A stretch of 62,961 nt of DNA, filler included, from Octopus bimaculoides (Eukaryota), in assembly GCF_001194135.2 (NCBI RefSeq). It is 5 parts of 4 records of this genome, joined end to end, with 100 filler letters (N's around TTAATTAATTAA, not from the genome) between each part and the next. Parts side by side here need not be neighbours in the genome. Positions count along the whole stretch, not along the records: positions 1 to 14,952 come from NC_068995.1; positions 15,053 to 23,514 come from NC_068996.1; positions 23,615 to 47,307 come from NC_068984.1; positions 47,408 to 59,684 come from NC_068982.1; 1 more part is not named here. The stretch is one strand, 5' to 3'. The position numbers and the translations under genes are program-made. The notes under the pieces are model-generated. The model made no database searches and was not told the origin of the DNA. It worked only from the letters and a program-made list of their open reading frames with translations. Position 1 is the stretch's first letter, and each line of letters starts with the position of its first letter. Below, one piece after another: positions 9,380 through 57,730 of this stretch.

Positions 9380-9970
9380 GTGTGTTTGGCATGTGTTTGA
9401 TTCCAACGACATGGTTTCGGTTGAGTTCTACTGCTTGGCACCTTTGTCAAGTATCTTCTGTCATAACCTCGGGCTGGCCGAAGCCTTGTGAGTGGATTTG
9501 GTAGACGGAACCTGGAAGAAGCCCGCCGTATATATATATATATATATATATACATTGATAGAAAAGGCAACAAAAAACAAAAGAAAGAGAACTCGATATT
9601 ATGTAAATAAAGGAATTTATCTGTAAAAATATGTGACAATTATTCGGTAGCCATAATAAAACTCCGAGTTTCCGCCCTGGCATCCGAAACTCGGAGTTTT
9701 ATTATGGCTACCGAATAATTGTCACATATTTTTACAGGTATATATATATATTCGTGTGTTTGTTCCTGTGTTTGTCCCCTACACTTACGCTTGACAACCG
9801 ATGTTGGTGTGTCTACGTCCTTGTAACTTAGTGGTTCGGCAAAAGAAACGACACTGTAAGTACTAGGCTTCCAAAGAGTAAGTCCAGAGGTCGATATCCT
9901 CGACTAAAAGGTGGTGAAGCAGCATGGCTACACTCAAAATGACTGACGCAAGTGAAAGAATAAAAGAATA
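9380..9970 (+). mobile_element. tRNA-derived SINE, family B (Meta-domain-like core, internal microsatellite), interrupted by a fold-back insertion
   Basis: Core GCCTTGTGAGTGGATTTGGTAGACGGAACCTGGAAGAAGCCCG, then (TA)n, then 3' half CGCTTGACAACCGATGTTGGTGTG...GACTGACGCAAGTGAAAGAATAAAAGA; the Meta-domain assignment is from memory. Confidence 0.85.
9621..9737. repeat. Perfect 52-bp inverted repeat with 13-nt loop
   Basis: Arms 9621-9672 and 9686-9737 are exact reverse complements; loop CGCCCTGGCATCC. Confidence 0.97.
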
Positions 9971-10454
9971 ATATAATTCCGGAGGGAATTACCTAATTCT
10001 GACTATTGTAACTTGTTCCAGGATACAGCGTTTTACTAAGAGCCAAAAATCGCAGAATACAATGTTCATACTGCGAGTGGTTGAGTTCTGTGTGATGTAT
10101 AGATCGGTTTTAAAGGATTCTCATTTCTATTGTAAGTTGGCAATGTGTATCTGAATATCTCAATGTAGCTGTATTTCGAGAAAAGCAGAAGAAAATGTTT
10201 TATGTATCATATACAATGAGCTCCATGCTATTCTGTTTTTGTTTTTGTTGTTAGTTTTTTAAAGAAGTTGCCATGGAGATCTTAATTTACTAAACAAATC
10301 TTTTCAAAAATAATTTTTTGGTTTAAACTTGTTATATATAAACACATATATGAGTGTGCGTTTCTGTGTGTGCATGTGTGTTTGTGTGTGTGTTTGTGTG
10401 TGTGTGTGTGCATGTGTGTGTGCATGTGTGTGTGTGTGTGCGCGCATGTGTCTT

Positions 10455-10645
10455 TGTGTTTGACTCCCGCTACCACTTGACATCCGGCGATGTTATGATT
10501 ACGATCCGGTAACCTAGCTGTCCGAGAACAGAGATTGACCCAATACGCTCCTGGCTTAAGAATAATAATTACTTGGGTCGGATTCATTCCTTTAAAAGTT
10601 CTTCAGGGCGATGATCCAGCATGACTGAAATAAGTACAAGAAATG
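10455..10645 (+). mobile_element. Family B SINE, 3' half, degenerate
   Basis: CGCTACCACTTGACATCCGG...CAGCATGACTGAAATAAGTACAAG following a (TG)n tract. Confidence 0.65.
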
Positions 10646-10683
<38 letters not shown>

Positions 10684-11699
10684 NNNNNNNNNNNNNNGGG
10701 GGGGGGGGTTGCATATTTGATTATAAGTGTATATATGTAGAATGGTTGCTTTGTATAAAGGCTTCACTTAAACATATCACGTAACATAGTCTTCTTTATG
10801 CTTATTTACACATAAATAACATTTTGACAATTTAAATTTCTATACCATAACTTCTTGCCTGTTTGACGATTTTGCGGATATCTTTAAACATTGCATGACA
10901 TTTAGTCGGTTGTAAATAATCGCTTTCAGATGTATCCCTTTCTACTCCTCTTCTCAATACATAGTCAACTCATCGGTAACGAATGCTATTTAAAGCAACG
11001 CTTTACAAGCAAACTGTTGTTAAATTATTGTTAAAAACTTTTAGATTGATGGAAAGGTCAAGGCATTGTAATTATAAACACGTTCTTTTATTTGGCTATA
11101 TACTGGAAACCTTTTTTTCTTTCTTTCATATTGGCTGTTATCATGGTCGCATCAATTTTCTTGTAAATCTAGTGGGGTTGGTTTTGAACATCAACACTAC
11201 GATAGAAAGAAATTAAAGCAGAGTTTCATAGTAAGAAGATGAATTACGAGTTATTTAGATTGTCCCCATGACTGTTTGATGAACAAACTAGATGAATTCA
11301 GTTAACGAAAGTTCTTTCTTCTTCCTCACAATATTACCTGTCTGAAAGACTACCTCGTGAGCCGTTAGTATGCAGAACGTTACTCTGCTGCACTTTTATC
11401 AGCTATTTTGTTAATATTTACATTTGGCAATTTTTTCGTTTCTTTCCATAAGAAAGTGATAACTTTTAACCCTGAGACGTTTTGGTACAGCTGTTTTTCA
11501 CCATCTTCGGTGTCGCTGATTCTCACACTGATTTATTTGACATTAGCCGTTTTCTTTCTGGGATATTTTACAGCTGTGGAAATTTGAGTTATTTTCTAGT
11601 AGACAAAAAAGGAACATGTAATCACAATTACTAAGTTATTCCAGGACTAAAATTCTTTTAGCTTTCGGCTTAATTTAATGTCAAAATGTGTCAAATTAA

Positions 11700-12090
11700 T
11701 AACGGAAATGGAGGCAGTTCAGCGTCACTACACTAGGAAAATTGCATCAACGGAACCGATGTGCACATAGGCGACTGAAAGAGTTGCAACTCCACTCTCT
11801 AGAGCGAAGACGGCAGAGGCATCAGGTGTTATACATATAGAAGTTCCTAGAATGGTTGGCACTAACTTCGGTGTAGATAGTTATACCAGCCAACAAACTG
11901 GGTGTCACTGCTGTGTGCCAAAAGAGAAACCCATCCCGTCTAGAGTGAGGACCCTGTACTGAAATAGCTTTGGTTTCAGATTTCCAGTACTATTTAATAT
12001 CTTGCCAAAACATCTGAGAGCTCTAAATAAAGCACGGAAACAAGATTTGAAAAATAGCTTCATCTCCAGCCGATCAAGATCTCAGATGAA
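11700..12090 (+). mobile_element. CR1/L2-like LINE, C-terminal ORF2 remnant
   Basis: Translates to EAVQRHYTRKI...RLKELQLHSLERRR...RVRTLY-NS.GF...LFNILPKHLR, typical of the post-RT region of CR1-group LINEs. Confidence 0.8.
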
Positions 12091-12349
12091 ACTATATCAT
12101 GTCTCCAGTGTATATTTCCACTTGTAAAGACACTGTATCATATGGCAATTATAATACAGTGAAAAAGTAAATTTGCGATTGAACATGCTCATCAAATCCT
12201 GTAGTTGTAAAATCGATTCCTAAGCAGGGTTTTAAAATTACACGAAATATACAATTATGACGCAGATGAAAGAGGATCTTGTAAATAGAGCCAAGATTAA
12301 AGAACGGATGTGTTCAGTTTTTTAGAACATCTTAGTGTAGTGTCCAGTG

Positions 12350-13980
12350 GCAACAGAACGTGATAATTTGGCACGGTTCTTTATACATATGAGTGTGTAT
12401 GTAATTAAATCACGATGGGGATTTTTTAAAGGCTGGATATTCAACCTGTTTGCCACTTATGGGGAAATTATTGACGAGAATAGTTGCCGAGTCAATGTAC
12501 AGACATCTGGAAAAAAATGGAGTCCTGCCACATGAGTGTAAGGGTTGCAAGCATAAGTGCAGAGGTACAAAGGATCAACACCTGATAGACAAAAGTGTAC
12601 TTAGAGACTGGAAGAAGAGGAAAAATATCATAACCATGTCATGAATCGACAATCGTAATGCGTACGATATGACCCCACATTCTTGAATTATATAATGTAT
12701 GAACCTGTTTGGTATTACATGGAATGTTGAGCAATTGCTTCGAAAATGTATGGCGAATTGGAGGACGGACCTGTCAGCATATGGAAGAAGTTTAGGGACA
12801 GTAGAAATCAGGAGGGGCATCTTTCAAAGGGATTGCCTGTCCCCACTGACCGTTGTACTGAACGTGATACACTAACACTGATTCTGAAGAAAGCAATGGG
12901 TGGGTATGTATTCAAAATCTGCCAACAAAAAGTCAACCATTTGTTATTCATGGATGACCGCAAACGTTACCGTAAAGATGAAGCCCAAGACAGTTACTTC
13001 GTTGATACGGTGTACACTCTCAGTGCTGAAATCAGAATGGAGTTCGGACTGAGTAAGTGTGGAGTGTTAGTCTTGCAGAGAGGTTAAATCAAGTGTATGG
13101 ACGGGCTATCGATACCGTCGGGGGAGGTTATGAATCTATAAGTACTTGGGGATTTATAAGTACTATAAGTATTTGGGGATTTTGGAAGTGGATAAATTGA
13201 GACTGAAAGAAGTGACAGAAAAATTTAAGGTGGAGTAATTGCGAAATTAAACGGACGGAATGAGATTGAAACTATCAACATCTGGATTGGCGCAGGGGTA
13301 ATCGCATGGACAGTAGACGAACTAAACAGCTTAGACAGAAACACAAGGAAGTTGCTAACCAGATATGAAACACTCCGCCCAAAAAATGACACAGATAGTC
13401 TCTATGTACAAAAAAAACCCAGGGGGAAGGGGACTTATTGGATGCAAACACAGCATTAGAGCAGAAGAAAACAACATAGCATTGTATGTAAGAAATGCCA
13501 CAGAACCGGTATTATTATAAGTAAGAAGGTCAAGCTAGTGTAGGATTAAAGGTTGCAAAGATATAGCACTATACAAGCAATTGAAAACGAATAAAACAGA
13601 AAATAGATGAGTAAAGAAAAGAATGCATGGACAAAGATGATGAAGATAAGACAGACAGAGAAAAAAGATGGCTGTATATGACTAAAAGTGATTTAAAATC
13701 GGGACAACACATCAGAAAGTGATATGTGTAGAATCTGTGGACAGAATGCTGAAACGCCACTAGCCCTTATTGAGTATAAAACAATATAACAAAGCTTGTC
13801 CATTGGATACTTTGAAACAAGTGTATACACCCGAATTGTGGAGCACTTGCAGAAAACAGCACCGCTTGGAACCGCTCGAATACTCCGGAAGGTACTCGAA
13901 ATATAATTGGTATTACCTTAGTTCACTGGTAGTGAGCTGCTGACACCATAGTACATCTCCAGCGTTAGAAGCTGTGCAAA
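12350..13980 (+). mobile_element. R4/Dong-like non-LTR retrotransposon remnant (RT through 3' end, internally deleted)
   Basis: KGCKHKCRGTKDQHLIDK, RRGIFQRD, VNHLLFMDD, MEFGLSKC, YKYLGILE, GGRGLIG, CRICGQ and terminal QKTAPLGTARILRKVLEI*; followed by (AAT)n. Confidence 0.88.
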
Positions 13981-13983
13981 GGC

Positions 13984-14030
<47 letters not shown>

Positions 14031-14034
14031 TGAT

Positions 14035-14402
14035 GATGTATCAATACCAGCAGATAACAACGTTTCCCTAAAAGAAATGGAAAAACTTTCAAAATACAAA
14101 GACCTAGAAATAGCGGTAACTCGAATGTGAAATCTAAAAACAGAAACAATTCCTATCATAGTAGGGGCCTTAGGTATAATAAAAAAAAATATTCAGACAA
14201 ATACATAACAAAAACACCAGGACTTACAAATATATATAACATACAGAAAATTGCACTACTAGGCACTGCACACATCCTACGCAAAACACTTTCAATACAG
14301 TAACCATAAGAGCACCACAGCAAACCACAGCACATACCCAAGGCACACAGAGCTGCGCTCGGTAGTGAAGTGAAAGCACGTTATAAAAATAAAACTACTG
14401 AA
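14035..14402 (+). mobile_element. R4/Dong-like element, 3' end (REL endonuclease C-terminus and 3' UTR)
   Basis: DVSIPADNNVSLKEMEKLSKYKDLE...IPIIVGALG...QKIALLGTAHILRKTLSIQ*; near-identical to 18715-19078; (AAT)n on both sides. Confidence 0.9.
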
Positions 14403-14420
14403 CAATAATAATAATAACAA

Positions 14421-14620
14421 TAATCCTTTCTATTATACGCATTGGCCTCAAATTTTAGGGATGAGACTAATTGACCCCAGTGTTTCACCAGTACTTAATT
14501 TATCAAGCCCGTAGAGGATCAAAGGGAAGGTCGACATCATCGGAATTAGAAGTCAGAACGAGATTACGGGGAAAATACTACTACACATTTCGTCCAGCGC
14601 ACTAATAACTCTTCGAGTTC
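14421..14620 (-). mobile_element. Family A SINE, degenerate
   Basis: Homology to 243-449 and 18333-18548. Confidence 0.8.
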
Positions 14621-14635
14621 GTTAACTTTATGGTG

Positions 14636-14728
<93 letters not shown>

Positions 14729-14952
14729 TCAAAATTAAAAGAAGAGTGCCATTTGCTATCTTGTGAAAAATATTTCGACATCTCGCGTGTCTTCCACTGG
14801 TTCAAAAAATAAATTTGTCAATCTACTTCATTTTGGTTAATATAGAAAGGATTGAGGTAACTCCTCCTGAAGATATAGAGTCAAAATTAAAAGAAGAGTG
14901 CCATTTGCTATCTTGTGAACAATATTTCGACATCTCGCGTGTCTTCCACTGG
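14729..14952 (-). repeat. 152-bp tandem repeat (at least 1.5 units, runs into a gap) with an HHR-like motif per unit
   Basis: TCAAAATTAAAAGAAGAGTGCC begins at 14729 and again at 14881. Confidence 0.9.
14764..14804 (-). ncRNA. Variant minimal type I hammerhead-like motif
   Basis: UGAAC-CAGUGGA-A-GACA-CGCGAGA-UGUC-GAA-AUAU-U-UUUCA; the second unit (14916-14952) has the fully pairing GUUCA arm. Core positions 4 and 6 deviate from CUGANGA. Confidence 0.5.
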
Positions 14953-15052
14953 NNNNNNNNNNNNNNNNNNNNNNNNNNNNNNNNNNNNNNNNNNNNTTAA
15001 TTAATTAANNNNNNNNNNNNNNNNNNNNNNNNNNNNNNNNNNNNNNNNNNNN
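14953..15052. other. 100-bp scaffold spacer (44 N + TTAATTAATTAA + 44 N); also at 23515-23614, 47308-47407 and 59685-59784
   Basis: Identical geometry at four sites; the 12-mer places stop codons in all six frames. Confidence 0.97.
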
Positions 15053-15219
15053 ATATATATATATATATATGTATGTATGTATATATACATTTATTTATAA
15101 ACAACTATGAGTTCACCTCATCTTATAGACGAAAAAATTGTAAGCTAATGATGTTCATCAGATAATCGTTTATTCCTTTGTTATCTATCTATCTGTCTGT
15201 CTATCTATCTATCTATCTG

Positions 15220-15296
<77 letters not shown>

Positions 15297-15684
15297 AGTG
15301 AAACGAAGCATAAGACTATTTATAAGTATTTTTGGTTATAATGTCTTATGTAGGTTCATTAACATAAAGTAATTATTGGTTACATTATGTAAATTACAGA
15401 AGAAAACTTTGTCAAATCATCAGAAACGTGTAACTTTTAAACGTAACGTTATTGAACTTAACATATGAAAGAATTCTGCATTGAGGAGATAGCTAGATAG
15501 ACCCGCGCGCGTGCGGCGTGCATATCAAATATACACACATAAAAACGCTTACACGCATATTTTTTTTAAATACCTGACAATATACAGCTGTTTCAGTACA
15601 TAATTATGTTTTCAAAAGTAAGCATAAATATATATATGTCCTGCAATAGAGGTATTTTTGTTTTGTTTTTTGTTCTTCTTTATT

Positions 15685-16008
15685 GAAGTGTTGTTGTTTG
15701 TTCTTTCTCGAGCCATGTTTGGTTCATAGGTGCCGGTTTCCCGCTTTTATTGGTGTATAGGTTCTCCACCTGGACGGGACGTCGGTCCGTCGCAGGTGTC
15801 GCAGGTGTCGCAGGTGAACTGCTAGATGTAGGAGGAAAGAGTGAAAGTTGTGGCGAAAGAGTCAGCAGAAGTTTGCTGTTACCTTCTGTCGGAGCCGCGT
15901 GGAGCTTAGGTGTTTCGCTCATAGGTACACATTGCTCGGTCTGAGATTCAAACCCAAGATCCCTCGACCGCGATTCCGCTGCTCTAGCCACTCGGTCATG
16001 TGCCTTTA
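15685..16008 (-). mobile_element. tRNA-derived SINE, family C (V-domain-like segment, AAC-rich tail)
   Basis: Head GACCGAGTGGCTAGAGCAGCGG...GGGTTTGAATCTC; internal CCTGCGACGGACCGACGTCCCGTCCAGG; tail CTCGAGAAAGAACAAACAACAAC; contains a 10-bp triplication (GTCGCAGGTG-like). Confidence 0.8.
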
Positions 16009-16032
16009 CTTTTATTTAAAGTACTTATGCTA

Positions 16033-16192
16033 ATTATTTACATTATTTACATTATTTACATTTGACAGATATTTGTCCTCATCTTGTTTGTTGTTAACAC
16101 AACATTTCGGCTGTTACACCCTCCAGCCTTCATCAGGTGTCTTGGGAAAATTTCGAACCTGGGTTCCCATTCCTAAGGTATTTTTTGATGTA

Positions 16193-16262
<70 letters not shown>

Positions 16263-16341
16263 TCACTGCCTGGAATCGAACTCGGAATCCTGGGGTTAGT
16301 AGCCCGCGCTCTTAACCACTACGCCATATGTCCGTAGGCAT
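16033..16341 (-). mobile_element. tRNA-headed SINE with internal (AAT)n and a hammerhead-containing 3' module
   Basis: A box TGGCGTAGTGG (16316-16326), B box GAGTTCGATTCC (16272-16283), (AAT)n ~16192-16258, HHR 16096-16141, 9-bp tail repeat (GTAAATAAT)x3 at 16033-16059. Confidence 0.85.
16096..16141 (-). ncRNA. Minimal type I hammerhead ribozyme motif
   Basis: GACAC-CUGAUGA-A-GGCUG-GAGGGUGUAA-CAGCC-GAA-AUGU-U-GUGUU: stem I GACAC/GUGUU, stem II GGCUG/CAGCC, near-palindromic stem III AUGU, intact core; predicted cut 3' of U at 16101. Confidence 0.75.
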
Positions 16342-17110
16342 ATACTACTACTACTACTACTACTAATAATAATAATAATAATAATAACCGAAGCAATTTT
16401 AGTAGCAGAAGCCAAAAAAAAAAAAAAAACATTGACAACAGCAATTACAAGCAAATATATATACGCCTAAGAAAAACGACAACAAGAACAACAACAACCT
16501 CAATGGCAGCAACAGCAACAACAACAATTGCAAGCGAAACGTAAGAAAATAAAAAGCGACAGTATCAATAATAACGACAAGTAAAGCGGTAACGTCCACA
16601 ACAACAATTACGTGCGAAAATATTGTCGAAGACAAAAACAACACGAACAATAAAGCGAAAACTGTATTATTGATCTACTTAACCTGGAAGAATAGAATTA
16701 CAGGTCATCGACAGACAGGCCCGGTCATGAATTTTCTTAAGGTATAAATGTTAATCAAGGTAACATTNNNNNNNNNNNNNNNNNNNNNNNNNNNNNNNNN
16801 NNNNNNNNNNNNNNNNNNNNNNNNNNNNNNNNNNNNNNNNNNNNNNNNNNNNNNNNNNNNNNNNNNNNNNNNNNNNNNNNNNNNNNNNNNNNNNNNNNNN
16901 NNNNNNNNNNNNNNNNNNNNNNNNNNNNNNNNNNNNNNNNNNNNNNNNNNNNNNNNNNNNNNNNNNNNNNNNNNNNNNNNNNNNNNNNNNNNNNNNNNNN
17001 NNNNNNNNNNNNNNNNNNNNNNNNNNNNNNNNNNNNNNNNNNNNNNNNNNNNNNNNNNNNNNNNNNNNNNNNNNNNNNNNNNNNNNNNNNNNNNNNNNNN
17101 NNNNNNNNNT

Positions 17111-17286
17111 CTATGTCATCCGTCGTCAGCGTCATCACCGTCCAGCAACGTTAAGATGACCCACACCTTTCATAGGTAGAGCATCTATGTCATCCGTCGT
17201 CAGCGTCATCACCGTCCAGCAACGTTAAGATGACCCACACCTTTCATAGGTAGAGCATCTATGTCATCCGTCGTCAGCGTCATCAC
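17111..17286. repeat. 74-bp exact tandem repeat at a gap edge
   Basis: CTATGTCATCCGTCG starts at 17111, 17185 and 17259. Confidence 0.85.
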
Positions 17287-17379
17287 GATTATCATCGTTA
17301 GCAGAGAAGCAGCATTGTCATCATCGACACTTTCGTTTTTTTTTAATGTCATTAGATGCATCAACAACATAACCGTGTT

Positions 17380-17548
17380 CATTTCCATCACCACCATGAC
17401 CATCACCACTGCCGACCCCAACACCACATCATCATCGTCCTCATCTTCTTCTTCTTCGTCGTCGTTATTATCATCATCATCATCATCATCATCATCGTCG
17501 TCGTCGTCGTCGTCGTCGTCATCACCATCGTCGTCATCACCATCGTCG

Positions 17549-17583
<35 letters not shown>

Positions 17584-17670
17584 GTAATTGTCATCGCCGT
17601 CGTAATTAACTTCAACAATATCTTCTTCTTCTTCTTCTTCTTCTTCTTCTTCTTCTTCTTCTTCTTCTTC

Positions 17671-18227: not shown

Positions 18228-18544
18228 GGATTGAAAGGTGTACGCAAATTGAAATGTGTATTGCGTAAAGACGCGCGAAATACCGTTAAGCATTTCGCCC
18301 CGCGTGCTAAAGATTCTCGCCGCCTTAACAATAATCCTTTCTATAATAGGCACAAGGCCTGAAATTTTGGGGGAGGGGACTAGTCGATTACATTGACCCC
18401 AGTGTTTCACTGGTACTTATTTTATCGACTCCGAAAGGATGAAAAGCAAAGTTGACCTCGGTGGAATTTCAACTCAGAACGTAAAGACGGGCGAAATACC
18501 GTTAAGCGTTTCGTCCAGAGCGCTAACGTTTCTGCCAGCTCACC

Positions 18545-18637: not shown

Positions 18638-19078
18638 TGCCAATACACACAGATAGAGAAATAGACCGGATATAGTTGTCAAAGATCATGAAGAAAAAAA
18701 TGCTTTCTAATTGATGTATCAATACCAGCAGATGACAACGTTTCCCTAAAAGAAATGGAAAAACTTTCAAAGTACAACGACCTGGAAATAGAGGTAACTC
18801 GAATGTGGAATCTAAAAGCAGAAACAATTCCTATCATAGTAGGTGCCTTAGGTATAATAAAAAATATTCAGACAAATACATAACAAAAACACCAGGACTT
18901 ACAAATATATATAACATACAGAAAATTGCACTACTGGGTACTGCACACATCCTACGCAAAGCACTTTCAATACAGTAACCATAAGAGCACCACAGCAAAC
19001 CACAGCACATACCCAAGGCACACAGAGCTGCGCTCGGTAGTGAAGTGAAAGCACGTTATAAAAAATAAAACTACTGAA
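18637..19078 (+). mobile_element. R4/Dong-like element, 3' end with REL endonuclease
   Basis: MPIHTDREI..RPDIVVKD...IDVSIPADDNVSLKEMEKLSKY...LGTAHILRK (PD..D..K-type motif); (AAT)n on both sides. Confidence 0.9.
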
Positions 19079-19134
19079 TAATAATAATAATACAAAATCT
19101 TAACAAAAAATGAAGTAGACTGACACGCAATTTT

Positions 19135-19175
19135 TGAACCTGTGGAAGGCACGCTAGATGCCAAAATATCGTTCA
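19135..19175 (+). ncRNA. Degenerate hammerhead-like motif, dispersed relative of the 152-bp unit
   Basis: UGAAC-CUGUGGA-A-GGCA-CGCUAGA-UGCC-AAA-AUAU-C-GUUCA: perfect stems I and II, palindromic stem III, core changes at positions 6 and 12. Confidence 0.55.
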
Positions 19176-19218
19176 CCCAATTTCCCATGATAACTATAGC
19201 ACTCTTCAATTTTTTAGT

Positions 19219-19273
<55 letters not shown>

Positions 19274-19309: not shown

Positions 19310-19480
19310 TCCTTTCTACTAAAGGCACAAGGCCTGAAATTTTGGGGGAGGGGGCTAGTCGATCACATCGACTCCAGTGTGTAACTGGTACTTAACTTAT
19401 CAAGCCCGAGAAGATAAGGTGAAGTCGACGTCGGCGGAATTTAAACTCAGAACATAAAGACGAACGAAATGCTGTCAAGC
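19310..19480 (-). mobile_element. Family A SINE, head truncated
   Basis: Homology to other family A copies. Confidence 0.85.
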
Positions 19481-19499
19481 ATTATTATTAATCTTGACT

Positions 19500-29705: not shown

Positions 29706-30325
29706 ATGCATATATGGGTACAGGACGTCACCAACACTAAACAATATGAAATACGAAAACAAATGAGTTAAATACGTAAACGAGAGAAATAAAATGAAAA
29801 ACTGGACAAGTAACACAAAGAACGACACTTCATCAATTGTCGGCTGTCTATCTACTCCTCATTTCGAGCAGTGAGCGACAATATGAGTCATCGAAAACAG
29901 TTGCTCCCATAAATCCCAAAATAAAAGTTTGGATTTATGGACGGTCAAAGTTTGGAACAAAAACATGACTGGAGATATACAAGGAAATCAAATGAAAACA
30001 AACATAGAAAGTTGTTACACCAGAACGAGGGTAAAATAGCGAACGCTGGAGAATTATTTTCTTTCAAAAGAGAAAAGATAGAAGAGAGAGATAGAAGACG
30101 TCCTGTCTTTAGCTATTTATGGGAGCAACTGTCTTCGAAGACTCATATTGTGGTTCAAAGCTAGAACTGAGAAGTAGATAGACAGCCGACAACTGATGAA
30201 GAGTCGTTCTGTGTCTTACTTGTCCTGTTTTCCATTTTTCTCTCTCATTGTTTGCGCATTGCACTCATTTGTTTTCGCATTTCATGTGGTTTACTGTTGG
30301 TGATGCCCTGTACCCATATATGCAT
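29706..30325. repeat. Long imperfect inverted repeat (~210-bp arms, ~200-bp spacer)
   Basis: 29706-29914 is the reverse complement of 30115-30325 (e.g. TTGTCGGCTGTCTATCTACT / AGTAGATAGACAGCCGACAA). Confidence 0.92.
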
Positions 30326-39149: not shown

Positions 39150-40290
39150 GCTAATGCACCTATAAATAAAGGGATACATTGTAACCACATTTTCCTCAGC
39201 CTTTGTAACACAATGGTTAGTACTGGTGCTTGCTATTAACTCTAGACTTCTCACATTCTCTCACCATTCGGAAGTGCAAATTTAATTACCTGAAACTTTC
39301 TACACTGTCTGCCCGCAACTAATAATTCACGTCTTCCGTCCTCTATTATGCTATCAGTCTGAATATTAAAACCACCCAGTATCTTTTACATCTTACTTTC
39401 TTGCATTTTTCTAAGTTCATGATCATACCACTTAACTGTAACGTCAAATCCTAGCTTTCTACATAACACCCAATGGATTGTTTTCCCAGATTGACATGTC
39501 TTTTCTTGTATTTTATGTGTCTGCATACTAGTTTCACTAACTATATGAGTAAATTTTCTTTTTTAGATTTGTGTAATCTACATCGGCAATCTATCTCATT
39601 TTTGGTATCTTAGCATTTATTCATTTATTACTCAATGCCTGGTCTTCTGTTGCTCTTAATAAACTTTCTTCCTCTTGTTTCAGATTTCCTTTCTACAAAC
39701 AAAACCATGTCTTACTATTAATATTTCCTGTAAGTATATTTGCAAATATGCTGCAAAGTCTTCTCTTCATGGTCAGATAATCATGCTACTGTTTTTCTTG
39801 TGTTTAACAACGTTTGGCTGTTTGGTTTCCCTTTCGCCTCCTGTTACAGTAGCAGATGTTAATAATTATATTTCTTGAAAATTACATACAAAAGTGTTTA
39901 TGATTGCTCTAGCTAATTTCACGAAGTCTTCTATTGATATTAAACTGTTAATAACTTCGTTACTTAAATATTATATTGCTACTCCAACTCTAGGATGAAA
40001 TCTTTTTATATTGAATTCCTCCCTAGCTCTGTGTCGATTTGCTAATTCGATTTATGTTCAAGCTACAAAAGCTACTGAATATTTAAGTAACGATATTACC
40101 CAATTAATTATAGCCTCCACTTGATTACGACTATTTAGCTTGACTTCACTACGTTCCTCACCCTTCTCCCATACTCCTTTTGAACTTTCTCTGTTATTTC
40201 TATAATTAGTACTCTGGCAGATTCTATACTCTTAACTTTCTCCTACTTTGAAAGATGTATGCTTTCATTATTTCATATACGATCGCTCAA
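39150..40290 (-). mobile_element. R4/Dong-like remnant (RT C-terminus to REL), old
   Basis: KVQKEYGRRVRNVVKSKLNSRNQVEAI, ESLLRATEDQAL, YKKRHVNLGK. Confidence 0.75.
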
Positions 40291-40309
40291 CAGATTAAAC
40301 TGTTGTAAA

Positions 40310-40980
40310 ATAGAAAGACCTAACATCGGGCTACAACATGTAAACTCAGATGCCAAGAACCCTCCAAAGTATCTTAGCTGTCCCTAATAACACTATTTTT
40401 TGGAGCTGGGTTTCTTGCTTATTTCCTCCATCCATCTGATGAATTATAGTTCTCAATGGACCTATAAATACGAGGATGCATTTTACCCGCAATTCTCTAA
40501 TTCAATGGCTAGGACCTGGTACTTTTCTATTTTTTCTACATCTCTCATATTGACTTTCCCACCATTTGGGACTGTTATGTTAATCATCTGGTACTTTCTA
40601 TTCTTTTTATCTACTATTACTACATCAGGCTTTCTAGCGTCTATTACTCTGTTAGTCTGAATATTAAGGTCCCTTATATTTCTTACTTTCAAGTACATTA
40701 CTAGGTTCAGGTTCATTTTATTTATCAGTATGTTCAAATCCTAGCTTTCAACATAAACCCAAGTGGATTACTCACCCTAGTTTGTCTGGTACTTTTCTAT
40801 TTTCTCTATACCTCTCACATTGGTTTTGTCACTGTAAAGTCGATTATTTGACTCTTTCTATTCTCTTTATCTACTGCTAGTAAGTCTTGTCCTTATAACT
40901 TCTATTACTCTGTCAGTGTCAAGGTTAAAGTTTCATAATACCTTACATTTCTTACTTTCTACTAGGTTCGCTTTCAAAAC
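40310..40980 (-). mobile_element. Two stacked R4/Dong-like REL/3' fragments (40310-40770 and 40780-40980)
   Basis: NIQTNRVIDARKPDVVIVDKK...KIEKYQVLAIEL...QKIVLLGTAKIL; 40780-40980 repeats the same motif block. Confidence 0.8.
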
Positions 40981-48637: not shown

Positions 48638-48945
48638 AAGTAGATGCCAAAATGACTCTGCAACCACCTCAAAACTCCATTAGCGCGGGTTGTAAGCGAG
48701 CAGATGAAAAAGTAATTAAAGTGTATATATATGGTCGTGCGAATACGGTGTTCGTACGAGTATGTATGGATATTTGCATATGTATATTTTGACATATTGT
48801 ACTGAAGATAACAAGGTGTTTTATATCGTTAAGTTCGAAATCGATTGATCAATTGATCAAAAAAGTCTTGTTTCTTCATCTGCGCGCTTACAATCCGTAC
48901 TAATAGTGTACCGACGTGGTTTTACAGTCATTTTGGCGTCTACGT
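48638..48945. repeat. Imperfect inverted repeat, ~70-bp arms
   Basis: TAGATGCCAAAATGACT...GTAAGCGAGCAGATGAA (48638-48710) versus reverse complement of 48874-48945. Confidence 0.8.
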
Positions 48946-49362
48946 GTTTTATTGCCTGTAAGGTTTTTAATTCAGGCTGGCCACTTGATAAAATGATTAA
49001 AGTGACTTCATCCTTAATTCTATATAAAGAAAATATATATAAATATATATATTTCATTACGTGATAAATAATCCAAGAGAAAATATTTGCGAATATATTA
49101 TTGACTCTGTTATTATCTAGTGTAACAATTAAAAGTGATAATAGAAGAATCAACAATATAGGTAATTGCAGGCCCAAAAAAGCATTAAATCGCTGAAGGA
49201 TTAAAATTAATCAAGGGATACACGAAGTAGGTCTACTTGTTGGAATTCACAGTCAAAGCTTGTATTTAAATCGCCGAAAAATTTTATGATAACTACAGAA
49301 ATCCAGCGCTTGCGGGTAAACGGGCTAAGACAATCTCTCAACATACATTCAAGTATTTGCAC

Positions 49363-49417
49363 TCACGTGGACTGGTTTCTGGACTGGCATTAGAACCTCA
49401 CATTCTTCAGATTGCGT
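49363..49417 (-). ncRNA. Hammerhead-like motif, partner arm
   Basis: CUGAAGA-A-UG...CA-GAA-ACCAGU-C-CACGUG; core intact, 5' arm of stem I mutated. Confidence 0.4.
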
Positions 49418-49770
49418 TACCATGATGGAAAGCTCCAACCCGCCACGTTGAAGTCTGCGGTGCAACTGATTCGCTATGAGCCGCATCGTGGCAGCCACCA
49501 TGTGGAAATAGTCTCAATACGGAATAAATAATTCAGGAGAAAATATTTACGGAGAAACAGGCTAACACAATCTCTCAACGTACTATTATCATTTTTAATT
49601 ATTACACTAGATAATAACAAAGTCAATAATATATTCGCAAATATTTTCTTCTGAATTATTTCCTCCGTATTGAAGATATTTTGACACTGGTGGCTGCCAG
49701 GATTCGGTGCAAAACGAATCAGTTGCAGCGTAGATTTCAACGAGGCATTTTATGACTTTCCATCATGGTA

Positions 49771-49825
49771 ACGCGTGCTGAGGAATGTGAGGCTATAATG
49801 CCAGTCCAGAAACCGGTCCACATGT
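49771..49825 (+). ncRNA. Type I hammerhead-like motif
   Basis: ACGCGUG-CUGAGGA-A-UG...GGC-UAUAAU-GCC...CA-GAA-ACCGGU-C-CACAUGU: intact core, 6-nt palindromic stem III, stem I 6 of 7 pairs, bulged stem II. Confidence 0.62.
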
Positions 49826-49974
49826 GTCCAAATACTTGAATGTATGTAGAAATTGACGGTTTGCCTGCAGACGGTTGGTTTCTGTAGTTATCATCAAATG
49901 TTTTCGGTGATTTAAATAAGAGTTTCGACTGTTATTTCCAGCAGGTAGACATACTAAGTATGTCCTTGGATTAA

Positions 49975-50399
49975 TTTTAATCTTTCAGCTATATATCTGT
50001 TTCGATTATTTTACTGCGACCATGCTAGAGCACCACCTTAAGGGGTTTTATTCGAACAAATCGCCCCCAGGACTTATTCTTTGTAAGCCTCTTACTTATT
50101 CTATCAGGGTTTTTTGCCGAACCACTAAGTTACGGGATCATAAACACACAGACATCGGTTGTCAAATGTTGCTGGGACCACAAACGCAGACGAACACACA
50201 AATATATATACACGCACACATATGTACGCGCGTGTGTGTGCGTACACAGGCTTCTTTCAGTTTCCGTCTACCAAATTCACTCACAAGGCTTTGATCGGCC
50301 CGCGGCTATAGTAAGAAACAACATGCGCAAGGTGTCACGCAGTGGGATTGAACCCCCGGAACCATGTTGTTGGGAAGCAAGCTTTTAATCACGCAGTTA

Positions 50400-50400
<1 letters not shown>
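49975..50400 (-). mobile_element. Family B SINE, full length
   Basis: GGCTTCTTTCAGTTTCCGTCTACCAAATTCACTCACAAGGCTTTG on +, with head and 3' end recognisable. Confidence 0.9.
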
Positions 50401-50457
<57 letters not shown>

Positions 50458-52439
50458 AAATATATATTCTTCTATTCTTTTATATATTTCTGCCTTCAGG
50501 CTGCGGCCATGCTGGGGCACCATATATGCACATATATATATATATATATATATATATCTTAAAAGTTTCTCTTTTGAAGGTGAATAAAGCTTTTCTTGAT
50601 GTACGTATATGGTATTATGATATGGATCATTATACTAGGTTTCGATAACAGTGTATAAGCTTTTACTGCATTATTGCTGACATCTTGATTAATATCACTA
50701 AAGCACTGTTATTGCATTGATAATTGATAGCGCCACTATCGATTTACATCCTCCTTTGATGTTATGAATATTATATTCAATCGGAATAATAACTATGGTA
50801 CATACAGAGATGTCTAGAAGAATACATTTCTTTCTCCATAACACTGAACTGAACTCTGAGACACCAATGCTTATCGTACTACACTGTCTCTTATAAAAGC
50901 AAATTGTTTTTAAAGCTACAGTTGTCCATTGCATGAATTCATGTAATGCTAAAATTTAGTCTCAAAATGATCTCAACATGATCTATGTTGCTTTTATTGA
51001 CACGGCTTCTCAGTGGAATTCTTGTCCGGAATCCCCAAATATTTTGCTATAAATTCACACAGACATTCAACGTATTTTATTCTATTTTGGTGGCATTCTT
51101 TGCTTTCATATTTAAACACTAATTAACTATTTCAATACCACCTTAAACTACTCAGGGAATTCAGCAAATGGTTTTTAACGCAGCTTATACTGCTATAAGC
51201 GCATTAGACGCTTTTTTTAAGAGAGAAGAATCGACCAACACGATATAAACTTTTTGTAGGGAAAACAGAATGAGATCGTATCCAAATTAATTGTGGTTAA
51301 TTTTCAAATGAATCCAATACACAATACGACATTCTTCAGAATACAACAGATAAGAGTTCGGTTTGCCAAACCATTTCTTATTTAAAGTCGATGCTTCAAC
51401 GTCATTAAGAATATTGGATCGTGAAATATTTGAAAGAAGCGAAAGTCTGCATAATTCAATATTTCTGTAGATGAGTATATAGTTCTTTGCATAATTTGAA
51501 TGTGAATGTTTGCACATGAGATAAATTCTGAAACTTAAAGATTTAGGAAAGAATATAACTTTTGAAAATTTACCTGCTGAAAGGTTATTGATCTTTTTGA
51601 GATAAAACTTTCTGAACTCTACTTTGTTTTGCAAAAAACTACAGTTACAGTTTGTAAGTGATGTAGAAAATTCCATGAGGAAATTTGGTATGGATATTAA
51701 CTGTGAGCATCAATTGCGATGCAGCTAAATTGACATAAAAGTTTCATTTGAAATGATGATCAAAATGTAGATTCTGGAGTGACGACTGAGAGTAATAATT
51801 GTGTCGCACTTCAGTGATATGAATATAATGAATTATGACTTATTTCAGAAGTCCCTTTCACTGAAGATTGAAGCAAGGGCAAAGTTGGAAGAATTATTAG
51901 TTCATTGCATACTTCTGAAATAATAGAAAGACATTAAATACTTTCGAAATTTATTAAAGAGGAGCATGGTCAGGAATTGTAATTAATAATACAATGAGAA
52001 AGGAAAATGGTTTATTTGCAATGCTAGAACATTTCCCATTCCTTAAACGTTGTATTACTAAGGTTATGATCTTTATGGAGCAACACGTCACTATTTAGAT
52101 AATGAATGGAGAACTTGGTCGCAAAATGCAACATTCATTTCTACGGGATTTATATTTGTTTCGATCAAAAAGAATTTTAAAATACTCAAATATCTTTATT
52201 GCTGAGAAAATATATTGAGAAAAGAATTGGACAACAAAGGAATAAATTTTTTAATAGTTTAATGAAATATTGAAAAATGAAATAAACATCAGAGATGCTT
52301 TGTCCCACGCATAAAATGCCGGAGCTACTCAGAGGTTTTTCTAGCACCTTTAAGTTCATTGCAATGCTGGAAACCCTTCCATATAGTCAGCGGGTATCTC
52401 CGTGGTCCCCAAGCATTTCGCCTCTTAGTCTCTAGGCTT

Positions 52440-52900
52440 CGCCTGAGTGGTGCAGCCAGGACCTCCACATAAGGAAATGTTCGACTTGTGGTCTCTTATC
52501 AACCATAGAGATCTTGAGCTACTTTCAGCTACCATGCCTATTTCCTTGATGGTTTTCGTTCGTATCTGGATTTCAGACCCATCTTCTACAGGAAATAGTG
52601 CACTGAACCAAATGCAAAGCTGCGGCCGCTGACTTCAATGGGGAATGAGGCTGCATGTCAGCTCTTGATATTTCCATTTCGATAATGGTGGAAAAATCTC
52701 GAGTATGTCTTCGACCACAATGATTGGTTTTGTATTCATAAACACCAGAAACATATTTGGTAGGAGTGATGTCACCACTATCTCCACTGAGAAGACAAGT
52801 CTGGCCCTCAGGCCCACTTGCATCTCCCAATCTGAAGCTGAACCAAAAAGGTCCCCTTCCATTGCTTTCGCCTCGGCAGGTTAAATTATTTATAATTTTG
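52440..52900 (-). mobile_element. HERO-like (REL-type) non-LTR retrotransposon, 3' remnant
   Basis: SASDWEMQVGLRARLVFSVEIVVTSLLPNMFLV..TKPIIVVE, KWKYQEL, FPVEDG, IKEIGMVAESSSRSLWLIRD match the HERO C-terminal pattern as I recall it. Confidence 0.72.
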
Positions 52901-53079
52901 CTATTAAAATCTTCACGACACAGTATCGCAAACAAGTTCTATAGAAGTATGCTTGTCACTTCATCAGAATTACCTAGTTCGAATTCCGATTCTCAAATCA
53001 TGATAATTGAAGCACCAACCTCGCCAAAAGATAATTGAAGCACCACGCTCACTAAAAGATAATTGAAGCATCAACACAG

Positions 53080-53760
53080 TCACATAGATGAAATGTTGTC
53101 ATTAACGAAGCTGCTGACATTAATTATGAGAACATTCATTCGCTAAATGACACAAACGTTTATCAAGGAGAGAGAAAAATTTGGAATTACTAGACATAGC
53201 ATTGATAGTTTGCAGAAAGTGTTCTTTACGCTTAGCAGTAGTTCACTAACTTCCTTCAAAGCAGAGGAAGCCTCGTCATTCCCTATGAGATATTTGTTGC
53301 AAAATCGTGACGGCATAATCAACGATGTATGATTCATGAGAGACTATCAATCAGACTGAAATATTTTTAGTTTGCAAGAAAATCTGCCACGTTTTTTGTT
53401 TTCGAAAATTTTTGATATTTTTTTCAAAGTATACAGAATTTTTTAATGGAATTGGTTATTTTGATCATGATTCTTGATTTCTCGTGTAAACTGTGCACAT
53501 GTTCAGACTCTGAACATTCCTGACATTTGGATTTATATCGGACACCTTTTATCGCGTGAATAACTGATCTCGATGGTAAAGATAAGCCTGTCTCTTTTGT
53601 TTGGAAAAAAGTTCTGACAGTTTCCATCTTTGATGGCTATTATAAATGAGTTTGTGCGGTGGACGAGATTTTGATAACTAACAAGAGTGACTTTCTTCAT
53701 GCAACAAACTTTATTTTCATCTAAAACTTGAAAAGCAGACGATCTCCTCCGAAAGTTTGG
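53080..53760 (-). mobile_element. Possible Helitron Rep-helicase linker remnant
   Basis: Weak resemblance (ALKEVSELLLSV, KGVRYK..CQEC, SLHE); no diagnostic HUH or Walker motif seen. Confidence 0.3.
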
Positions 53761-53839
53761 TGGAAGTCGTCGAGTTTTGCGAGGCTGATGTCGGAGTGTA
53801 GGACTCCTTTAATTTTCTTTTCTAATTAAATAAGAGTAA

Positions 53840-54055
53840 GTCACCGAACTGGCAGAATTGGTATTGCGCCGGACAGAATGCTTAGCGGCATATAGTCCAT
53901 CATTGTGTTCTAAGTTCAAATTCCGTCGAGGCCGATTTTGTCTTTCATTTGTCAGCGTCGATAACACATAAGGATCAGTTGAGTACCGTGGTCAGTGCAA
54001 TGGACCTGCCTCCCTCCCACGAAATTGCTGGTCTTGAGACAAAATTTGAAACCAA
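53840..54055 (+). mobile_element. Family A SINE, full length, degenerate
   Basis: GAACTGGCAGAATTGG...GCTTAGCGGC...TTCAAATTCCGTCGAGG. Confidence 0.85.
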
Positions 54056-55864
54056 TTCAATTGCTGGAAACAGATACTGAACATAACGTCCAACAGCTTT
54101 AGAGATTTATGAGGTGTCACAGATTTTCTGGATGGAAGATTTTGTTAAAGACATTCATTGAATATTTTTATTTTTGTGCTCAATTGATATTTTTGTCCCA
54201 TTTTTTTCTTTTTATTTCACAGTCGGCATAAATTTACCGGCACTTTTTTTCTATTTATTGCAGCAAAAATAATGGTGAAAATTATTATTTATTCGTATGC
54301 GGAAAGGAACAGGTTATGATTGCAAATACCCTTACTCCATTCGTTGGAACGTGCACACAATCTCGATATACCTGGTGGTTATCACGTAAGAGAATGAAAA
54401 AAATGATATCAATTTCTATCTGATAATGCCAAGTTTGGCTTGGAGAGAAAAGTAAAGTTGCTCTCATCTTACAAATTTCCTGGAAGGTAGATGAGATTGA
54501 GAGAATGATTAAGATATTTTATTTCATCCATTTTGTATTCTGTCCATCTTGTCTAAACCTGCAGGGTTTTCTTGTTTGCCCTAATTATGTCTGTTTATCC
54601 GTTCCGAGTTTAGATTCTACCGAGGTTAACTTTGCTTTTCATTCCTTCGTTATCGTTAAAATAAGTCCTCGTTGAGCCCTGGAACCGAACGAATCGCCCT
54701 GCCCCACCAACCTCTCAGAAATTGCAAATTTTGGCTTGGAAATATTGATTGTATCTTTTATTATTAAGTCTGTAATAACCAAATTTGTTTGCTTTTTATT
54801 GATGTTATCATTAAGCCTTATTTTGGGATGGTGCTCTCGGTGGCTCATAGAATCTATTCATTTTAATTCCTGAATTTTGATTACCATCATCATGATTTCT
54901 TACTTCAGAGAATTTCCTGTTTTTAAACCGACTTCAAATTCCTTCTTTCGTACCTTTTTTGTTTGAGGGGTTCTCGACTGGTATTTCAGTCATTACTCTG
55001 CAGTCACGTGGTTTGGTTTTGTTGCACCTCTTATTTCTATTTCCATATTTTACATTTTCAGTGCTGTGATCATTACTTGTATTTTCGCATTATATTCTTC
55101 CTTTTAAAGTTTCTATTTCAAGCCTCTCCCTAAGATATCACCTTAGAAATAAATAGTGAACAGTATTTCAAACAAAACAGACCGTTCCGAAAGCTATTGC
55201 TTCATTTTGTAGCTCTACATTCCGAGTTCACATCCTGCGACAGTTGACAAATGTATGGCATTATCGGAATGCTAGAAATTAGTCGTTTCAGCTAAATTTG
55301 TAAAGCAAACAAAAATAGGCAATTTGTCATTGTTTACCTCCATTTTTGTATCTTCATTGATATCGATACGTGCTATTCCATCATATTCTGGCAAGCAATC
55401 TTTTATGATTTCGTAGAAATTCTATACAAACGAAGGAATAAATTAACCAATTATTATTGAAATATAATATTTACATTTTCAATGTTGGCGAATATATTTT
55501 GTTGCCGATGTTGAGGTTGTGTATTTGCAGTCGATGCAAATAAATTATTATTGTTGCAGAAGAGGATTTAGAAAAAAGTCCTGAAGCGAACTTTTTCTGT
55601 ACAAACTACATAGATCGATGAATATTTTAAAATATTACTAAAATATTTGTAATGAATTTGAGCAGATGAAATCTCTACACAGCTTCACAGTGACTCAATG
55701 TTTCGCCGGTTCGTTTTCTGTCAACGCATTTGATACGTTAACTACCCACTTGAGTGTAAAAGCAGTTTATATCTTTGCAAACCTGACTAATAGAAAAAAA
55801 ACCCCGAAGATTGGAATTACAAAACATTCCAAAGATTTCAAAGCTATAGTTAAATTTCATTTCT

Positions 55865-56497
55865 TTTTCATCTTTTACTTGTTTCAGTCATTAGACTACG
55901 GCCAAGTAGGAGGACCGCCGCGAAGAATGTTTAGTCGAATGGATCGATTCCTGTACTTATATGTTTATGCCCGATACTTATCTCGTTTCTCGCTTTTGCC
56001 GAAGCGTTAGTTAGAGGGATGTAAAGACACCAACACCGGTTGTCCAGCGGTAGTGGGAGACAAACACAGACACAGAGATACACATGCACACACGTATATA
56101 TATATAAATATATATATATATATAAATNNNNNNNNNNNNNNNNNNNNNNNNNNNNNNNNNNNNNNNNNNNNNNNNNNNNNNNNNNNNNNNNNNNNNNNNN
56201 NNNNNNNNNNNNNNNNNNNNNNNNNNNNNNNNNNNNNNNNNNNNNNNNNNNNNNNNNNNNNNNNNNNNNNNNNNNNNNNNNNNNNNNNNNNNNNNNNNNN
56301 NNNNNNNNNNNNNNNNNNNNNNNNNNNNNNNNNNNNNNNNNNNNNNNNNNNNNNNNNNNNNNNNNNNNNNNNNNNNNNNNNNNNNNNNNNNNNNNNNNNN
56401 NNNNNNNNNNNNNNNNNNNNNNNNNNNNNNNNNNNNNNNNNNNNNNNNNNNNNNNNNNNNNNNNNNNNNNNNNNNNNNNNNNNNNNNNNNNNNNNNN

Positions 56498-56535
<38 letters not shown>

Positions 56536-56604
56536 TATATACACAGATCTATATATGTACATTTATATATAAATATACACACACATATGTACGCACACGC
56601 ACAC

Positions 56605-56639
<35 letters not shown>

Positions 56640-56825
56640 ACGGGCTTCTTTCAGTTTCCATCTTCGAAATCCACTCACAAGAGTTTGGTTGGCCTGAAGC
56701 TATAGTAGAAGACACTTGCCCAAGGCACCACGCAGTGGAGCGGAACCGGAAACCATGTAGTTGGAAGGCAAACTTCTTACCACAAAGCTATGCGCCTCAT
56801 AAGCTACGCTTGCGACTATAGCCAC
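55865..56825 (-). mobile_element. Family B SINE with an expanded internal (TA)n spanning a gap
   Basis: 3' half at 55865-56090, core GGGCTTCTTTCAGTTTCCATCT...CACTCACAAG at 56641-56690, head to ~56825. Confidence 0.85.
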
Positions 56826-57041
56826 ACCTGCGCCTATCTTTGAAATAAAGGTTGCCTGAAATATGTTAGTAATTCGTCAGTGTGTGTGGGTGTGCTTGTG
56901 TGTGTGTGTGTGTGCGTGCGTGTGTGTGTTTGTATTCGATCCTTCTAATTAAAGAGAACGTAGGTTTCCATTTGCTATAGTAAAATACTTCTCACTACTC
57001 ACTGGTTTGCAGTAGTTATATGTAAATAGAAAACGGACATT

Positions 57042-57730
57042 ATGGCAGTGAGCTGCTAGGGTAGCTAAGCACAGATCAAAATCTTTACGACGTCTTGTAG
57101 TAAAGATTGTTAACCAACATAACATGGCAGTCCTGGTTTAGGACGAATGTTGCTGTAATTTAGCTCCGAAAGACATCGTCTCCAGCTGGCTATATGACAC
57201 GATCTGTGTCGTTATATTTTCGAACAAGGGAATCTAGCACCCCCACTCAGCTCAAAATAGTATCTGTGTTTCGCTATTTCCGGGTTATTTCCCTTCATCA
57301 GCATAGAATTTCCCCTTCAGCAAAGAATTTCCTTTCATCAGCACAGAATAATTGACATGTGCTGATAAAGGGAAATAACTCGGAAATCGCCATATAGAGA
57401 TTTTTTTTTTCAGCTGAGTGGGGGTCCTAGATTCCCTTATTTGAAAATATAAGGACACAGATCGTGTCGTATAGCCAGCTGAAGACGATGTTTCCTGGGG
57501 CTAATTTACAGCAACATTCGTCCTAAACCAGGACTGCCAGTACTGTTGCTGAATATCTCACGTGAGATTTAAAAATAGTAATTTTCTATTTTACGTTCTG
57601 GTTTCAAATTCCACCCAGATCGACTTTGCGTTTCATTATTTCGGAGTCGATAAATTAACTTGATTGAGTATCGGGATCGATATGATTGATTAGCCCCCTC
57701 CTCTTAAAATTGATGGCCTTGTTCTAGCAT
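57042..57730 (+). mobile_element. Family A SINE split by the 57125-57539 fold-back element
   Basis: Head GGCAGTGAGCTG at 57043-57100; body resumes TTACGTTCTGGTTTCAAATTCC at ~57591. Confidence 0.65.
57125..57539. repeat. Long inverted repeat (~180-bp arms) with a short tandem triplication in the spacer
   Basis: TGGCAGTCCTGGTTTAGGACGAATGTTGCTGTAA... versus ...TTACAGCAACATTCGTCCTAAACCAGGACTGCCA; units like TTCCCTTCATCAGCATAGAAT x3 at 57288-57349. Confidence 0.93.

Follow-up and report, generated by a model that had tools for sequence, protein, structure and literature searches.

The stretch of DNA analysed here (the window) comprises 62,961 nucleotides of Octopus bimaculoides, made of five parts of four genome records (assembly GCF_001194135.2) joined with filler, and it carries three families of short repeats in which minimal type I hammerhead ribozymes had been predicted: family 1 (motif at 16096-16141), family 2 (14764-14804 and 19135-19175) and family 3 (49363-49417 and 49771-49825). 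All five motifs are present at these coordinates, three of them on the minus strand, and the hammerhead motifs are real but less uniform than first described. The window is AT-rich (GC content of 18-39% by bin), with abundant microsatellites and 3,606 N, has no long clean reading frame and looks like intergenic or intronic animal DNA. Besides the published systems cited below, PMC13282606, PMC3088659, PMC7151607, PMC6962438 and PMC10886601 were drawn on.

The family 1 motif (16096-16141, minus strand) has a full consensus core. It consists of a helix I of 5 bp, CUGAUGA, an extra A, a helix II of 5 bp opened by a G-C pair, GAA, the helix III strand AUGU and U17, so that CUGANGA, GAAA, U16.1 and H17 are all in place, and cleavage is predicted after the U at 16101. 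Minimal hammerheads of Penelope-like elements (PLEs) have been described as having a short helix I, an extra nucleotide, a G10.1-C11.1 pair and a palindromic helix III strand of 4-6 nucleotides, with weak cleavage as dimers (PMC4209133; Cervera and de la Pena, 2014), and family 1 carries every structural trait listed there; its AUGU is perhaps a decayed CpG. A strict minimal type I descriptor matched the window only at family 1 and gave no match in 20 shuffles. In a relaxed motif scan, compared with 143 block-wise dinucleotide shuffles, family 1 scored 24.0, the right arm of family 3 14.8 and the family 2 motif at 19135-19175 12.2; scores of 16, 14 and 12 were reached by 0, 4 and 14 of the 143 shuffles, respectively. 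Three matches scored at least 12 in the real window versus a mean of 0.1 per shuffle. The copies at 14764 and 49363 fell outside the best 30 matches.

The family 1 motif is set in a longer arrangement (16033-16345, minus strand) that reads, on that strand, from a small hairpin at the start of a tRNA-like head (~16262-16337) through (AAT)22 to the body with the hammerhead (16063-16190) and a tail of 3.3 copies of a 9-nt repeat. The head has an A box and a B box with one mismatch to the consensus, and ARAGORN called no tRNA gene there. Self-comparison revealed a single copy of family 1 within the window. Head and body may form one short interspersed nuclear element (SINE)-like unit, in which family 1 would resemble Sm-alpha and Sj-alpha of Schistosoma, tRNA-related SINE-like repeats with a hammerhead (PMC2770079), with the difference that these carry canonical hammerheads and family 1 a minimal one. 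If this is true, family 1 would be a SINE whose carriers are PLEs, not long interspersed nuclear elements (LINEs). Two distinct tRNA-like heads with A boxes lie in this region, both on the minus strand, at 16255-16345 and 15915-16004; the former, which has a 7-bp hairpin at its start, is immediately followed by family 1.

Family 2 has a unit of 152 nt. A partial tandem at 14729-14952 (minus strand) follows (AAT)31 and is cut by an N gap; its motifs lie at 14764-14804 and 14916-14952, the latter truncated by the gap, and its core reads CAGUGGA. A copy in the opposite orientation (19092-19220, plus strand) lies between (AAT)n runs and carries the motif 19135-19175 with the core CUGUGGA, in which AAA replaces GAA (G12 to A). 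One helix II pair differs between the loci, being A-U in the first copy and G-C in 19135-19175. As a family, the repeat keeps the helices, GAAA and AUAU. The original prediction had given every family a CUGANGA-type core and had named family consensuses lacking that core as evidence against it; this architecture was found in family 1 and in the right arm of family 3, but not in family 2, where U occupies position 6 in every version seen, that is, in all three window copies and in the consensus lines of loose ends from other copies, with no difference at 14796 among 40 of the 46 differences. At position 4, U accounts for 21,752 of 579,201 and 4,964 of 107,502 of contig depth (below 5%, a figure biased towards the query) versus 26 of 53 and 16 of 36 RNA reads; the subfamily resembling the window tandem has A there.

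Other copies of families 2 and 3 were surveyed in DNA contigs by their summed depth, which is not equal to copy number and favours copies resembling the query. For family 2, this depth rose to 977,122 versus 31-73 for single pieces, corresponding to roughly 10^4 copies; because depth peaks where one unit joins the next, the permuted 152-nt unit is a trait of the family. Helix I is restored in other copies (14768 A>C, 4,579 of 5,466 depth). Across the 41-nt motif, the four DNA-level differences that are common among copies all fall at free positions, two in loop II (shares of 40% and 56%), one at N7 (58%) and one at H17 (46%), a placement with P ~0.002, or 0.009 when U4/A4 is counted and 0.02 when one RNA-only difference in helix II is added. 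The CpG at C11.1-G12 showed no difference, and both CpGs of the loop vary at 40-56%. Helices and the G8, G12 and GAAA positions are constant among family 2 subfamilies. Six DNA inversion joints, at six different points, were among the 12 joints listed; (AAT)n and (ATT)n ends occur alike, many of them 43 nt past the end seen in the window. PLE insertions are described as partial tandems with an inverted 5' copy, a 30-40-bp tail and a bias for microsatellites (PMC8557442), and the inversions, the ends beyond the window end and the microsatellite seats of family 2 are in line with this.

We also considered whether a LINE of the Dong/R4 type that targets (AAT)n carries family 2, and possibly family 1 as well, in the manner of a SINE, the hammerhead being a dead relic. 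Both family 2 loci have a 3' end of one and the same LINE beside them (14034-14400 and 18712-19076, 96% alike), Dong-R4 elements are described as recently active in Octopus vulgaris, and the family 2 core departs from the consensus. However, self-comparison showed no 3' end common to family 2 and the LINE, and their relative orientations are opposite at the two loci. An unrelated SINE of 15 copies sits in the same runs, which makes the (AAT)n runs shared landing sites; the occurrence of both (AAT)n and (ATT)n ends, the variable inversions and the constancy of the helices and of G8, G12 and GAAA likewise speak against a relic carried by a LINE, and we regard this explanation as quite unlikely.

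Family 3 forms one head-to-head inverted repeat (49053-49995) with arms 75% alike and motifs 354 bp apart. The left arm (49053-49585, minus strand) contains about 1.15 units of a 460-nt repeat and the decayed motif 49363-49417, with ACCAGU and a broken helix I; the inverted right arm (49583-49995, plus strand) contains about 0.9 unit and the motif 49771-49825, in which CUGAGGA, GAA, ACCGGU and C17 complete the core, with cleavage predicted after the C at 49818. Its helix II is bulged and closed by U10.1-A11.1. Between the two arms, N7 is the only core position that differs, and 49363-49417, previously taken for a second copy, is instead the other arm of a single inverted insertion. Since the sequence at the start of the left arm recurs 460 nt later, at the arm's far end, the family 3 unit is a permuted 460-nt repeat without an open reading frame (ORF). 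In two DNA runs, which gave 2,605 and 1,953 contigs for this region, summed depth was 15,438 and 20,847 over the motif regions, whereas single pieces had 25-56; further downstream it reached 170,086. We take this to mean roughly hundreds to thousands of copies. Other copies restore ACCGGU in the left arm, a majority of the depth at 49373 showing T>C (4,313 of 8,297), and loose ends at 49992 and 49085 run on into the other end of the unit. Opposite-strand joints in the family 3 contigs were left out as inversions, the reference including both arms.

Pairwise comparison confirmed that the three families are unrelated in sequence, the scores being equalled by 16, 83 and 173 of 200 shuffles. An extra A after A9 was found in all five motifs, as had been stated; the parallel drawn with the CChMVd(+) viroid is unneeded, an extra nucleotide between A9 and 10.1 being a described hallmark of Penelope minimal hammerheads. 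Self-complementarity of stem III held for ACCGGU and AUAU, for AUGU through G.U pairs only, and not for 49363-49417, ACCAGU being no palindrome; the calculated self-duplex energies were -8.3 kcal/mol (ACCGGU), +1.6 (AUAU) and +2.6 (AUGU, G.U only). The G10.1-C11.1 pair is present in families 1 and 2 and is U-A in both arms of family 3. All motifs are of the minimal kind, and the loop I-loop II contacts of canonical type I hammerheads are absent from them.

The window motifs belong to a kind already known from PLE minimal hammerheads, non-LTR (long terminal repeat) retrozymes and Sm-alpha, and families 1 and 3 fit the first. PLE minimal hammerheads occur as many unrelated families per genome, either single or in opposite-strand pairs 100-700 bp apart (PMC4209133), and the window motifs resemble them in the short helix I, the extra nucleotide, the helix III palindrome and the lack of relatedness among families, the 354-bp spacing of family 3 falling within that range. 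They differ in U6 and frequent A4 (family 2), in U10.1-A11.1 and a bulged helix II (family 3) and in having no PLE ORF linked to them here. Retrozymes, which derive from PLE ends, are in metazoans described with canonical hammerheads with loop contacts, in dimers to multimers, with abundant circular RNA (PMC7229834; preprint 10.64898/2026.07.22.740005), and the preprint admits minimal motifs into the definition. Families 2 and 3 are similar to retrozymes in that they are ORF-less, low in GC (33% and 40%) and permuted, with one type I motif per unit and a proposed PLE helper; in terms of the ORF-less, low-GC, tandem unit of ~150-450 bp, family 2 has 152 nt (1.5 units) and family 3 has 460 nt (1.15 units), just above the range. 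Unlike retrozymes, they carry minimal motifs in only 1-1.5 units per copy, and no abundant RNA was seen.

Scans of metagenome, viral and prokaryote collections with the family 1 and 2 motifs returned no matches, and none of the 81 Rfam matches in the window, or of the 7 around family 1, was to a hammerhead. This last result, the folding of whole units, which was no better than that of shuffles (z of -0.4 and +0.6), and the modest excess of single copies of families 2 and 3 over chance (14 and 4 of 143 shuffles) could be expected if the motifs were chance matches in AT-rich DNA and the fold-backs of the window (see below) MITE-like DNA transposons (miniature inverted-repeat transposable elements) or satellites. 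Family 1, however, greatly exceeds chance, the palindrome of family 3 and helix I of family 2 are restored in other copies, and the fold-back arms are unequal, permuted and without fixed ends, so that such an origin appears extremely improbable.

Taking the observations together (motif anatomy, unit lengths, the many copies that families 2 and 3 have, partial tandems, variable inversions, microsatellite seats and lack of a coding frame), we consider it probable that the three motifs reside in unrelated short ORF-less repeats that are copied in trans by the reverse transcriptase (RT) and GIY-YIG endonuclease of a PLE encoded elsewhere, and that weak cleavage of dimers releases unit RNAs; helper and cleavage are what we infer. 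That PLEs mobilise such repeats is the model put forward in the literature (PMC4209133; preprint 10.64898/2026.07.22.740005). The microsatellite targets, the partial tandem arrays and the varying inversion points agree with Penelope-driven copying, and O. vulgaris is reported to have 190 PLE families, 31 of them recently active. Read-through transcription of a partial tandem would produce an RNA with two motifs, whose self-complementary helix III strands could pair with each other into a dimer fold and be cut after position 17, giving an RNA of unit length. The PLE enzyme would then use a nick within a TA-rich or (AAT)n run for priming and copy more than one unit, and a frequent template switch during copying would leave an inverted arm. 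Cleavage is predicted to be weak overall and plausible for families 1 and 3, and most window copies, being single or decayed, are likely inert. The earlier idea of several ribozyme-bearing non-autonomous families is partly supported, by short, ORF-less repeats of which families 2 and 3 are high-copy and permuted, with Penelope-type footprints, but not by family 1, which has one copy here.

Several results weigh against this interpretation. Family 2 is not a consensus hammerhead: it has a build like that of the PLE minimal type, and its core is not CUGANGA. Changes at position 6 reduced activity in the hammerheads that have been tested; a natural A6C core is reported to cleave at <0.1 per minute, and A6C strongly reduces activity in Mg2+ and spares that in Mn2+. 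Our literature search, with subscription papers outside it, found no report of a natural A6U hammerhead. With U6, and with A4 in a large subfamily, cleavage by family 2 is predicted to be slow or absent, and its spread suggests that fast cutting is unnecessary for copying. Family 3 lacks G10.1-C11.1 and so departs from the consensus as well. Of nine predicted frog retrozyme dimers only one was reported to be cleaved in vitro, which makes the activity of any given copy doubtful. No helper ORF was found in the window or linked to the repeats; a Pfam search with the 300 longest of 400 unmasked ORFs of at least 45 amino acids gave five weak matches, all under the curated cut-offs, and none to RT or GIY-YIG, in agreement with the original prediction, within a limited reach, as evident LINE fragments also went unmatched. 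The family-level evidence comes from reads and contigs matched to families 2 and 3, the bias of summed depth towards query-like copies applies to it, and the differences considered were 40 of 46 for family 2 and 40 of 201 for family 3.

RNA data also belong on this side of the balance. In about 6% of each of three raw RNA runs (a share of 11.5-12.9 million reads per run), family 2 was matched by 148 and 95 reads and the family 3 stretch by 329 and 306, many of the latter on the adjacent SINE and none of them 99% alike. Neither a pile-up of read ends at the predicted cut sites nor any other place where many molecules begin or end was seen for families 2 and 3, in fragmented cDNA libraries that would hardly show cut ends. 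An abundant transcript of either family was likewise absent from this share of the runs, prepared as libraries that may miss circles. Reads of both families were even on the two strands and mostly continued into unrelated sequence, so that this RNA looks like passengers in other transcripts. A 152-nt back-joint (4 and 1 reads) was rejected as evidence for circles, given that the tandem junction exists in DNA. At 14850-14903, 23 of 83 and 15 of 58 RNA reads lack 2 nt at 14877; these reads have the same flanks and almost no counterpart among DNA contigs, and they probably stem from one transcribed locus containing a family 2 piece.

Beyond the three families, the window contains fold-backs that bear on another explanation, namely that the motifs are ribozyme-bearing pseudo-LTR (pLTR) ends of autonomous PLEs, left as 5'-truncated inverted stumps, with no independent non-autonomous families. 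Most single minimal hammerheads are described as coming from PLE ends that have been truncated (PMC4209133), family 1 has a single copy, and the fold-backs beginning at 9615, 29717 and 57115 are built as head-to-head stumps, with 29717-30314 laid out like published 3' ends of Naiad elements. Nevertheless, both here and in other copies of families 2 and 3, reading on from the motif leads back into its upstream sequence after 152 nt and 460 nt, respectively, so that an ORF would not fit, and for the three motifs we regard this explanation as unlikely, if somewhat less so than carriage by a LINE; for the other fold-backs it is likely true. With six or seven fold-backs in 63 kb, inversion of the PLE type suggests itself as shaping much of the window DNA.

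The fold-back 29717-30314 (no strand assigned) lies in a TA/CA microsatellite and has arms 85% alike. In its right arm, a cut site (30147) is followed by GAA (30164) and CUGAUGA (30193), that is, CUGAUGA with GAAA upstream, and the two arms jointly give a full hammerhead core in S-G-C order (the strand with the cut site, then GAAA, then CUGAUGA), the helices measuring 6, 4 and 5 bp. The two-arm score of 35 was reached by none of 7,491 column shuffles and by 5 of 1,620 core-fixed shuffles, six orders having been tried on six fold-backs. In a scan for single-copy S-G-C motifs, this fold-back was not ranked, shuffles outscored every real match, and each arm taken singly is decayed. Ribozymes of type SGC show cleavage in vitro and are described from metatranscriptomes, with no find in genomes of known organisms according to the available text (PMC10085705). 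The fold-back shares with them the strand order, with a 6-bp helix I and a 5-bp helix III, and differs in its decayed arms and in the possible pairing of helix II with an upstream strand rather than with the bases that follow A9; in the left arm alone, a 5-bp helix II with the upstream strand is possible.

The fold-back 29717-30314 is a probable Naiad-type stump. Published Naiad ends from two Octopus species and from Acropora, compared by eye, show the same S-G-C order with different but complementary helix I and III strands. In PMC8557442, Naiad_Ovul is marked 'HHR_half_core' with a (TA)n preference, and the Naiad motifs are called non-canonical. None of the short words tried gave an exact match of the fold-back to a published Naiad end, and no report of Naiad ends as permuted hammerheads was found in the literature by title or abstract. 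Short words of these repeats, compared with the supplements of two papers, matched no named element; the O. vulgaris repeat library, which lay outside that comparison, may already include these families.

These findings add a probable cephalopod example to a pattern seen in many animals, in which one genome holds several unrelated repeats with minimal hammerheads; no report of octopus hammerheads of this kind was found by title or abstract. Whether PLE copying needs the ribozyme is described as an open question (PMC8557442), and family 2, a very successful family with a changed core and constant helices and catalytic guanines, offers a direct test of that need. We put forward tentatively, at somewhat less than even chances, that Penelope-type repeats use working hammerheads outside the textbook form, either in S-G-C order at Naiad-type ends (e.g., 29717-30314), or as a natural A6U core at ~10^4 copies (family 2), or both. 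In the available accounts, the S-G-C layout is so far reported only from environmental RNA, and Naiads are said to lack hammerheads. If the proposal is true, descriptor searches miss S-G-C and A6U forms, and both the counts of animal ribozymes and the view of Naiads as ribozyme-free need revision; the fold-back would then place a recently described ribozyme layout inside animal retrotransposons.

Further fold-backs showed less complete motifs. At 57115-57548 (no strand assigned), two arms 81% alike stand head to head without a complete type I motif, and decayed halves of the form CUGAUGA/CUGAUAA, A, GGG...CCC/CUC and GGAAAU lie near the centre. The near-perfect hairpin 9615-9743 (no strand assigned) has only an apparent 3' half of a hammerhead (GAA ACU C) and was rejected as a ribozyme, there being no CUGANGA on either strand. 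No complete motif was obtained in any of six strand orders for 9615-9743, 48640-48943 and 59789-59972. Unequal, diverged arms are seen at 48640-48943, 57115-57548 and 59789-59972.

Two candidates, 52900-52973 and 15101-15169, were rejected as motifs at chance level (48 and 97 of the 143 shuffles reach 10 and 8, respectively). The latter (minus strand) has an 8-bp helix I and CUGAUGA with a broken GAA, and it shares with 9615-9743 the three bases 'ACU' between GAA-like and cut-site bases; the two may represent one more decayed family, whose helix III strand would have 3 nt.

Among neighbouring repeats, LINE 3' ends ending in (AAT)n lie at 14034-14400 and 18640-19076 (plus strand), with older pieces at 39342-40959 (minus strand). 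Their frames resemble what we take to be the tail of a restriction-like endonuclease, presumably Dong/R4-like; Pfam provided no name for the fragments, and Atlas gave only 'hypothetical protein'. The SINE-like family of 15 window pieces, 68-87% alike and often beside (AAT)n, includes 223-452, 14425-14623, 18326-18544 and 19311-19487. A perfect 74-nt repeat (17110-17286, 2.4 copies) adjoins an N gap, and gaps come with a TA-rich 12-letter filler, both likely assembly artefacts. Two smaller repeat families lie at 9401, 38088, 50245 and 56639 and at 9782, 50046 and 55930.

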